Assembly: GCA_011390645.1 (NCBI GenBank)
Contig: JAABRY010000001.1
Span: forward strand, 7,192 to 71,191
Direction: 5' to 3'
Source of the DNA: Gemmatimonadota bacterium
GTDB lineage: Bacteria > Gemmatimonadota > Gemmatimonadetes > Gemmatimonadales > GWC2-71-9
DNA length: 64,000 nucleotides
Below the pieces are notes generated by a model, which worked only from the letters and a program-made list of their open reading frames with translations, was not told the origin of the DNA and searched no databases. Below, one piece after another: positions 6,250 to 6,333 of the stretch. Each line of letters begins with the position of its first letter. Position 1 is the first letter of the stretch. The position numbers were made by a program, and so were the translations under genes.

Positions 6250-6333
6250 CAGAGAACAGAGAACGGCACTAGGTATTCCAACATCCATCATCCAACGTCC
6301 CTTGACCTGCGACCTACGACCTACGACCTACGC
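6250..6333. repeat. 12 heptads in a single 7-nt register (CAGAGAA x2 ... CCAACAT/CCATCAT/CCAACGT ... CCTACGA x3)
   Basis: Direct reading of 6250-6333. The period-7 phase is maintained across different unit types. Confidence 0.85.

Follow-up and report, generated by a model that had tools for sequence, protein, structure and literature searches.

Why should two unrelated genes for secreted proteins in one bacterial genome be preceded by similar composite leaders of 7-nucleotide (nt) repeats? The question is raised by a 64-kb stretch of Gemmatimonadota DNA (the window; contig JAABRY010000001.1), in which such leaders lie upstream of a DUF4920 gene and of an M14 carboxypeptidase gene. All coordinates without another label are window positions, and both leaders are read on the minus strand. 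We conclude that the DUF4920 leader consists, on balance probably, of intergenic heptanucleotide simple-sequence repeats (SSRs) that expand a spacer, one of a genome- and lineage-wide population of such elements in a Gemmatimonadales-type bacterium. Directly observed were specificity for period 7, absence from genes and the ribosome-binding zone, stop/start polarity, relatedness among units, rapid turnover at conserved positions and an operon context.

Heptad blocks in two intercistronic spacers

From 6331 to 6232 on the minus strand, the DUF4920 leader runs through four GTAGGTC-type units, AAGGGAC, three GTTGGAT-type units, TACCTAGTGCC, (GTTCTCT)2 and GACTCGAGAGATTCTC to the ATG. Tandem Repeats Finder (TRF) returned period-7 rows at 6250-6264, 6277-6300 and 6304-6332, each composed of head-to-tail tandem 7-nt units. 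The parts, read from the sequence with further evidence in brackets, are as follows.

6304-6331 (-): stop-proximal block (GTAGGTC)x3 + GCAGGTC (TRF period 7, 4.1 copies)
6297-6303 (-): degenerate unit AAGGGAC
6276-6296 (-): GTTGGAT GATGGAT GTTGGAA, the unit identical with that of (GGATGTT)4 in the M14 spacer
6265-6275 (-): junction TACCTAGTGCC
6251-6264 (-): (GTTCTCT)2, the pyrimidine-rich array closest to the start codon (TRF)
6249-6266 (-): 18-mer "box" CCGTTCTCYGTTCTCTGA, equal to CCGTTCTCTGTTCTCTGA (exact match)
6235-6250 (-): array-free ribosome-binding zone GACTCGAGAGATTCTC (orthologues carry GAGAG, GAGG or GGAG at equal distance)
6232-6234 (-): DUF4920 ATG

The spacer between an HI0933-like gene and the M14 gene holds 23 heptads in one 7-nt register, from the upstream stop codon to the ribosome-binding site (RBS) zone.

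35172-35335 (-): HI0933-like-to-M14 spacer as a whole
35308-35335 (-): (GTCGTTN)4
35278-35305 (-): (GGATGTT)4
35224-35271 (-): seven GWTCRCC-type units
35202-35223 (-): degenerate stretch
35181-35201 (-): GTTCTCC GTTCTCT GATCTCC (TRF row 35180-35205)
35186-35203 (-): second exact copy of the box CCGTTCTCYGTTCTCTGA, ending 14 nt 5' of the M14 ATG
35172-35180 (-): GAGACTGCC
35169-35171 (-): M14 ATG

An earlier note on this DNA had described two leaders of the same block order that share an ATG-proximal box. The composite repeat spacers, their shared units, their orientation and their relative order are real, but the leaders have just two unit types in common, GGATGTT and GTTCTCY. The 18-mer is likewise identical and equally distant from the two ATGs; it is, however, the (GTTCTCY)n heptad array itself, a further array from the window-wide repertoire, at the edge of the ribosome-binding zone and before a weak GAG-type Shine-Dalgarno (SD) sequence. 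At up to three mismatches the window contains 3 box matches (the two exact ones and an overlapping two-mismatch site at 35179-35196) versus 0.07 expected. The note put the distance to the ATG at about 15 nt; measured from the box it is 14 nt, and from the last full GTTCTCT unit 16 nt. The apparent lack of an SD sequence needs softening, as weak SD-like motifs, GAGAGA (6240-6245) and GAGA (35177-35180), stand 5 nt 5' of the DUF4920 and M14 ATGs, respectively. A search for at least 4 nt of anti-SD complement 5-10 nt before the ATG found no more than GAGAGA or GAGA here, and GAGG or GGAG at the corresponding place in orthologues; the position of the SD-like motif is thus conserved among orthologues.

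Pfam confirmed both gene identities that the note had proposed. The genes and the one further array around the leaders are listed here, with open reading frame abbreviated to ORF and amino acids to aa.

5791-6234 (-): DUF4920 gene, 147 aa, signal-peptide-like N-terminus (Pfam PF16267, E 7.7e-18; 147-aa orthologues)
6328-6552 (-): small conserved ORF, 74 aa, weak Zn_ribbon_8/FmdB-like match (tblastn 68% identity to the orthologue in the related locus L041; Pfam sub-threshold)
6613-6676 (-): array in the CopD-to-small-ORF spacer, (GTCGTTG)5, (GGCGTTG)2-like, (GGTGTTG)2 (sequence; TRF; register)
6680-7976 (-): CopD-like and Fur genes, upstream operon members (Pfam CopD, FUR; tblastn to the L041 operon)
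7602-7976 (-): Fur gene (Pfam FUR)
32487-35171 (-): M14 carboxypeptidase gene, 894 aa, signal-peptide-like N-terminus MRFRHLLVAAILVAPLGAQA (Pfam PF00246; orthologues)

The DUF4920 leader is a spacer between cistrons of a Fur-CopD-small ORF-DUF4920 operon and not the 5' end of a transcription unit. Locus L041 has the same gene order with gaps of 5, 30 and 37 nt, an operon layout without room for internal promoters. In the window the CopD-to-small-ORF spacer measures 127 nt and the small-ORF-to-DUF4920 spacer 93 nt (37-50 nt in array-free relatives), the extra length being due to the heptad arrays. The small-ORF stop (TAG, 6328-6330) and the HI0933-like stop (TAG, 35328-35330) each sit within the first unit of the following spacer, GTAGGTC in the former case, and the CopD-spacer array begins right behind the CopD stop (TAG TGA, 6677-6682). 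Over its full length, that CopD-to-small-ORF spacer has a better folding score than shuffled sequence (z = -3.1). Four GGG runs, GGGCGTTGGGCGTCAGGTGTTGGGTGTTGGG, occupy 6612-6645 in minus-strand sense at the end of its array, where a G-quadruplex is possible.

GGATGTT-type arrays contain ATGs, at 6291 and 35303 (-), from which the frame runs into DUF4920 and M14, respectively, without meeting a stop. They yield spurious ORFs of 166 aa (DUF4920) and 938 aa (M14) and are a likely source of mis-annotated starts. We rejected an N-terminal extension from these ATGs: it is not conserved, and the same frame meets a stop in the relative L039. The DUF4920 orthologues begin at the downstream MLL... ATG.

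Period-7 arrays and their turnover in the lineage

One detector returned 14 period-7 arrays in the window versus 0 of periods 5, 6 and 8-12. The lineage was sampled as approximately 1 Mb of metagenome loci around M14 orthologues, mostly Gemmatimonadota; relatives are metagenome-assembled genomes of Gemmatimonadales, Gemmatimonadaceae and Longimicrobiales where named. Close relatives are also present in the samples SRR22808025, SRR33394503 and JGI 3300042224. These loci yielded 47 period-7 arrays versus 3, 12, 12 and 12 for periods 5, 6, 8 and 9. Not one of 66 arrays lies inside a called gene, several overlapping just the last codons or the stop codon. Arrays reach gene 3' ends, with the stop codon in the first or second heptad, at 6328-6330, 35328-35330, 51272-51274 and 38481-38510, and at approximately 2310-2360 of L048 and 9815-9850 of L050. 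The last approximately 9 codons of an acyl-CoA oxidase gene are encoded by (GCGAACA)3, and the HI0933-like protein of L048 and L050 reads through several units before its stop. A heptad-like run on the plus strand, GGAGGTT GGACGTT GGATGCT GGATGTT (57715-57746), was discarded as an array: it belongs to the coding sequence of an NlpE/META protein (57456-58532), in the part for the NlpE N-terminal domain, and is probably a coding similarity.

Array composition depends on position relative to the gene: purines and G prevail near stop codons, whereas near start codons the arrays are rich in pyrimidines and poor in G. When read in the direction of the preceding gene, arrays at most 20 nt downstream of its stop codon are purine-rich (23/26, p = 9e-5), and those no more than 30 nt before a start codon are pyrimidine-rich (14/17, p = 0.013), the start-proximal arrays of the lineage mostly terminating 6-20 nt short of the ATG. 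Coding sequence and roughly the final 8-18 nt ahead of a start codon do not tolerate arrays. The proximal block of the DUF4920 spacer fits this polarity, and the purine content of its distal G/T-rich blocks is close to neutral. In 86 unambiguous lineage starts, positions -25 to -14 are rich in C and poor in G, and an SD-like 4-mer at -12 to -8 is present in roughly one start in four; pyrimidine-rich arrays match the usual composition of the former zone.

The 14 window units form two families joined by single substitutions, with 14 such links versus 1.9 expected for random heptamers.

Family A: GTCGTAG, GTCGTTG, GGCGTTG, GGTGTTG, GATGTTG
Family B: TTTCACC, GTTCACC, GTTCGCC, GTTCGCT, GTTCTCT, GTTCTCC, GATCTCC, GATCACC

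These single-substitution links argue that the blocks are the product of satellite-like evolution through mutation and re-amplification. A direct illustration comes from the relative L042, where (GTTCGCY)4, one substitution from GTTCTCT, is inserted beside (GTTCTCT)3. The GTAGGTC unit of the DUF4920 spacer is also that of the M14-spacer array in L126 and of the orthologous DUF4920 array in L039.

Orthologous spacers are occupied in relatives but variable in length and sequence. The DUF4920 and M14 series, ordered by protein and aa identity, are given below.

L042, DUF4920 93% aa identity: at least 4 GGATGTT, 4 GTTCGCY, 3 GTTCTCT
L039, DUF4920 91%: at least 5 GTAGGTC, 3 GTTGGAT, degenerate box
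L043, DUF4920 85%: GTTCTCC GTTTTCC GTTCTCT only (box degenerate)
L045, L044 and L041, DUF4920 77-69%: arrays absent; C/T-rich spacers of 37-50 nt, GAGG or GGAG at -13 to -9
L040, DUF4920 72%: a different unit, (GCTGTTC)3.5
L126, M14 94% aa (85% nt): (GTAGGTC)4 plus 37 non-repeat nt; no box
L127, M14 80%: GCTTCTC-type array as in L046
L114, M14 78%: 41 nt, no arrays
L046, M14 75%: (GCTTCTC)7
L048, M14 71%: inverted arrays of CCGAGGA
L050, M14 66%: inverted arrays of GAAGCGA

The M14 spacer of L049 also carries other units than the window. The DUF4920 series indicates that the RBS-adjacent block is oldest and the stop-codon-adjacent blocks youngest, and the variation among orthologues means that the block order shared by the two window leaders is a transient state of this one genome. 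L039 and L042 are Logan short-read contigs that both start at position 1 inside heptad arrays, so copy numbers there are lower bounds; contigs starting in this way indicate that heptad repeats fragment k-mer assemblies.

In 1.1 Mb there are four occurrences of the doubled unit GTTCTCYGTTCTCY, one of them preceding a cytoplasmic LytB/IspH gene of a Gemmatimonadales genome. The earlier note had looked to random box position and orientation as the observation that would count against it. In the lineage all four occurrences are in sense, and 14-26 nt separate the box-type end (TGA) from a following ATG; sense polarity is, however, a general trait of pyrimidine-rich heptad arrays in these genomes and not specific to the box. 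What the note saw as a composite 5' region shared by two unrelated secreted-protein genes comes down to unrelated genes with repeat-built spacers, not a dedicated secreted-protein leader: the arrays are intercistronic, IspH has one and L126 lacks the box. The box, or (GTTCTCY)n, is not tied to secreted proteins. An exact box scan of 596 Gb of representative genomes, a collection without the source genome, gave 38 matches over unrelated phyla versus approximately 35 by chance (596e9 x 2 strands x 2 sequences / 4^18), the only informative one being L037, a Gemmatimonadales genome. Exact-protein look-up of the window DUF4920 gave no match.

Complementary heptad arms also form long hairpins, (GGTGAAA)3-5, a GC-rich loop and (TTTCACC)3, in six window spacers including one degenerate.

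30195-30275: hairpin
32400-32475: hairpin
39184-39255: hairpin
46290-46365: hairpin, partly covered by the folded stretch
57355-57435: hairpin
58560-58680: degenerate relative

Folding z scores are -4.6 to -7.2 for the hairpins and -2.5 for the degenerate relative. Located at gene 3' ends and between convergent genes, the predicted structures look like bidirectional terminators or repetitive extragenic palindromic (REP)-like elements. Relatives have the same architecture with other units, GAAGCGA (L050), GGGGTCA (L072) and GGTGAGA (L065). Two hairpins flanking an M1 peptidase gene in inverted orientation, 30185-30280 (-) and 32395-32485 (+), share imperfections (TTTCACC TTTGACR TTTCACC GCTTCA), a sequence likeness that suggests copying, not independent slippage.

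Function and origin of the arrays

As an intergenic SSR, the DUF4920 leader would have arisen by local amplification of a 7-nt unit, with slipped-strand or unequal exchange as the mechanism. Variants of that unit with point mutations would then have been re-amplified into blocks, and units or whole arrays may now and then have been shared between spacers. Several points weigh against slippage and spacer expansion as the full account. Identical units are found again in several unlinked spacers of a single genome, three window spacers share the order GTCGTWG-type then GRTGTTG-type, and an identical 18-mer stands at an identical 14-nt distance from two ATGs. Slippage alone is insufficient for any of these, so a contribution from dispersal, gene conversion or sequence-specific selection is required, and readings that invoke dispersal or a binding factor keep a low probability for the same reasons. 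The proximal (GTTCTCY)n block is kept in all DUF4920 orthologues of at least 85% identity, which could reflect function, and the arrays would be transcribed within the operon mRNA, judging by operon structure alone. For this genome the evidence covers 64 kb, and genes in the relatives were called crudely.

Signals of regulation were sought in and around both leaders. Consensus scans found neither sigma-70-like promoter hexamers nor intrinsic-terminator consensus there, and Rfam at gathering threshold matched three tRNAs only in the whole window and nothing at the leaders. (Three tRNA genes, Leu-GAG, Thr-CGT and Pro-GGG, lie at 12339-14024.) A hairpin, attenuator or structured leader RNA was rejected since the folding of 6235-6331 and 35172-35335 is worse than that of dinucleotide-shuffled sequence (z = +1.5 to +2.3). 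Thus the leaders have no RNA family, no stable fold and no sequence conservation in orthologues of the kind expected of a structured cis-regulatory RNA, and neither stretch contains the REP-like or terminator stem-loop that sibling window arrays form. Pairing of G/T-rich with A/C-rich blocks was also dismissed, as their reverse complements differ at 2-3 of 7 positions. The arrays in the two spacers behave as low-structure filler, and we found no evidence for a sequence-specific regulatory role.

Among the alternatives, an aid to translation initiation fares best, although we consider it unlikely. The pyrimidine-rich, G-poor (GUUCUCY)n tract before a weak SD would be an unstructured standby or S1-binding site that boosts initiation on a GC-rich polycistronic mRNA, with the distal arrays as spacers. 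Consistent with this, the array lies 14-26 nt before the ATG in four spacers, start-proximal arrays tend to be pyrimidine-rich (14/17), lineage starts have a C-rich, G-poor -25 to -14 zone with SD-like motifs in only about one-quarter of 86, the block is retained in orthologues of at least 85% identity, and a comparable role has been suggested for TAACTGA repeats (PMC4679880). Predicted accessibility is at odds with it. The unpaired probability from -18 to +12 was 0.376 for DUF4920, versus 0.348 +/- 0.084 with shuffled arrays and 0.427 with arrays deleted; corresponding values for M14 were 0.240, 0.256 +/- 0.063 and 0.395. The proposal that arrays keep the RBS open was therefore rejected, predicted accessibility being no better than with shuffled arrays and below that with arrays deleted. 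Moreover, orthologues function without arrays, and the M14 relative at 94% identity lacks the block.

A broader conjecture, which we regard as a long shot, is that Gemmatimonadales maintain an active, genome-specific heptad "punctuation" system. A small unit set would be homogenised across spacers by a dedicated spreading or conversion machinery, or through selection exerted by a co-evolving nucleic-acid-binding factor of 7-nt periodicity. The polar elements, a purine-rich stop arm and a pyrimidine-rich RBS arm, would be terminators or insulators where the arms are complementary and initiation contexts where they are not, the two leaders being non-pairing versions.

More narrowly, the heptads could be iterated sites for a trans-acting RNA- or DNA-binding protein of 7-nt periodicity (Csp-, CsrA-, HutP- or S1-like) that co-regulates array-bearing genes. 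A genome-specific unit repertoire is indeed reused at many loci in consistent sense orientation, (GGAUGUU)n presents GGA and (GUAGGUC)n presents UAG every 7 nt, and binding proteins have been proposed for TAACTGA repeats (PMC4679880). We nevertheless find this quite improbable: units differ between orthologous spacers of close relatives, the associated genes are unrelated in function (metal operon, peptidases, IspH, acyl-CoA oxidase), one and the same unit family turns up at 3' ends as well as in the two arms of hairpins, and no candidate binder was identified.

Still more doubtful is a dispersed composite cassette, mobile or gene-converted and comparable to a miniature inverted-repeat transposable element or a REP, which would bring its own block order and RBS-proximal end and of which both leaders would be copies. 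The identical 18-mer with identical 14-nt spacing, the unit-type order common to three spacers, (GTAGGTC)4 in the DUF4920 spacer here and in the M14 spacer of L126, and the matching imperfections of the hairpin arrays at 30185-30280 and 32395-32485 all speak for copying. Against this, the leaders have no associated terminal inverted repeats, target duplications or transposase, similarity beyond the heptads is minimal, and the orthologue series looks like in-place growth with the oldest block beside the RBS.

A phase-variable switch, in which gain or loss of 7-nt units would alter promoter spacing or leader length and toggle secreted-protein expression, is very unlikely: copy numbers do differ among close relatives, 7 is not a multiple of 3 and two Logan contigs break inside arrays, but such breaks are expected for any repeat beyond the assembler k-mer, the arrays are short (2-5 copies), intercistronic and without sigma-70-like hexamers around them, hence neither in coding sequence nor between promoter elements, and none of the associated genes is of the surface or antigen type.

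Heptamer repeats in other bacteria

Interpreted as intergenic SSRs, the arrays extend the unexplained bacterial excess of 7-nt intergenic repeats to another phylum, and the same stop/start polarity in Xanthomonas and Nostoc argues for a general cause. Their main value is a clean evolutionary series with heptad-built hairpins alongside: over a graded natural range (94, 93, 91, 85, 77% identity and below), arrays appear, diversify into blocks and get replaced. There are practical consequences as well. Gene callers will misplace starts and ends because (GGATGTT)n supplies in-frame ATGs and arrays run into stop codons, and heptad repeats break short-read assemblies.

In the literature searched we found no report of heptamer or tandem repeats in Gemmatimonadota/Gemmatimonadetes. 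Elsewhere, many bacteria have more heptamers than any other class of long SSR, and slippage of the polymerase over a contact of approximately 7 nt has been put forward as the cause (Mrazek, Guo and Shah 2007, as cited in PMC4679880 and PMC4692102). As that work is represented in the citing papers, its long SSRs resemble the present arrays in over-representation of the 7-nt unit relative to neighbouring lengths, intergenic bias and sporadic phylogenetic distribution; they differ in that here different units are concatenated in one register, filling the spacer from stop codon to RBS.

By analogy, the window arrays are probably the same kind of element as cyanobacterial short tandemly repeated repetitive (STRR) sequences, Xanthomonas GGGAATC and Beggiatoaceae TAACTGA repeats, with constraints at the mRNA level probably shaping them. 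Rehm et al. 2015 (PMC4692102) described intergenic GGGAATC in Xanthomonas and GGGGA(C/T)T in Nostoc PCC 7120 with the same ORF-relative polarity as here and with inverted pairs between convergent genes. Related strains had the same spacers occupied with extensive length and sequence variation, neighbouring genes were functionally random and no function was found. Polarity, inverted pairs between convergent genes and the functional randomness of associated genes are thus held in common. Unlike those repeats, whose G3-4 tracts form quadruplexes and prefer four units, the present ones belong to two other sequence families, mostly have no G3 runs and are not quadruplex-prone. TAACTGA arrays of marine Beggiatoaceae lie directly 5' of start codons without a good SD (MacGregor 2015, PMC4679880). 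They share with ours forward heptamer arrays just before starts, genes without a good SD and no common downstream function; TAACTGA is, however, a single A/T-rich unit overlapping the RBS, whereas the units here are many and GC-rich and end 8-18 nt ahead of the ATG, sparing the weak GAG motif.

Heterocystous cyanobacteria (Calothrix PCC 7601, cited in PMC4692102) likewise have, as STRR heptamers, several tandem heptanucleotides per genome in non-coding DNA, including intra-operon spacers. These STRR heptamers belong to another phylum and have other units. The AGAT repeats of Moraxella uspA2, cited in PMC4679880 as a 5' untranslated region/promoter SSR mediating phase variation, resemble the window arrays, so far as that citation goes, in lying between an upstream signal and the start codon and in strain-variable copy number; the present arrays differ in being short and interspersed genome-wide, with no promoter context found and with housekeeping or metal-homeostasis neighbours. 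Collectively, the arrays display every testable defining feature of the intergenic heptamer SSR class, namely tandem 7-nt units, a period-7 excess, restriction to non-coding DNA, variable orthologous spacers and polarity. They are distinct from its known members in phylum, in their GC-rich units that are not quadruplex-prone, and in the one-register concatenation of related units across a whole spacer.

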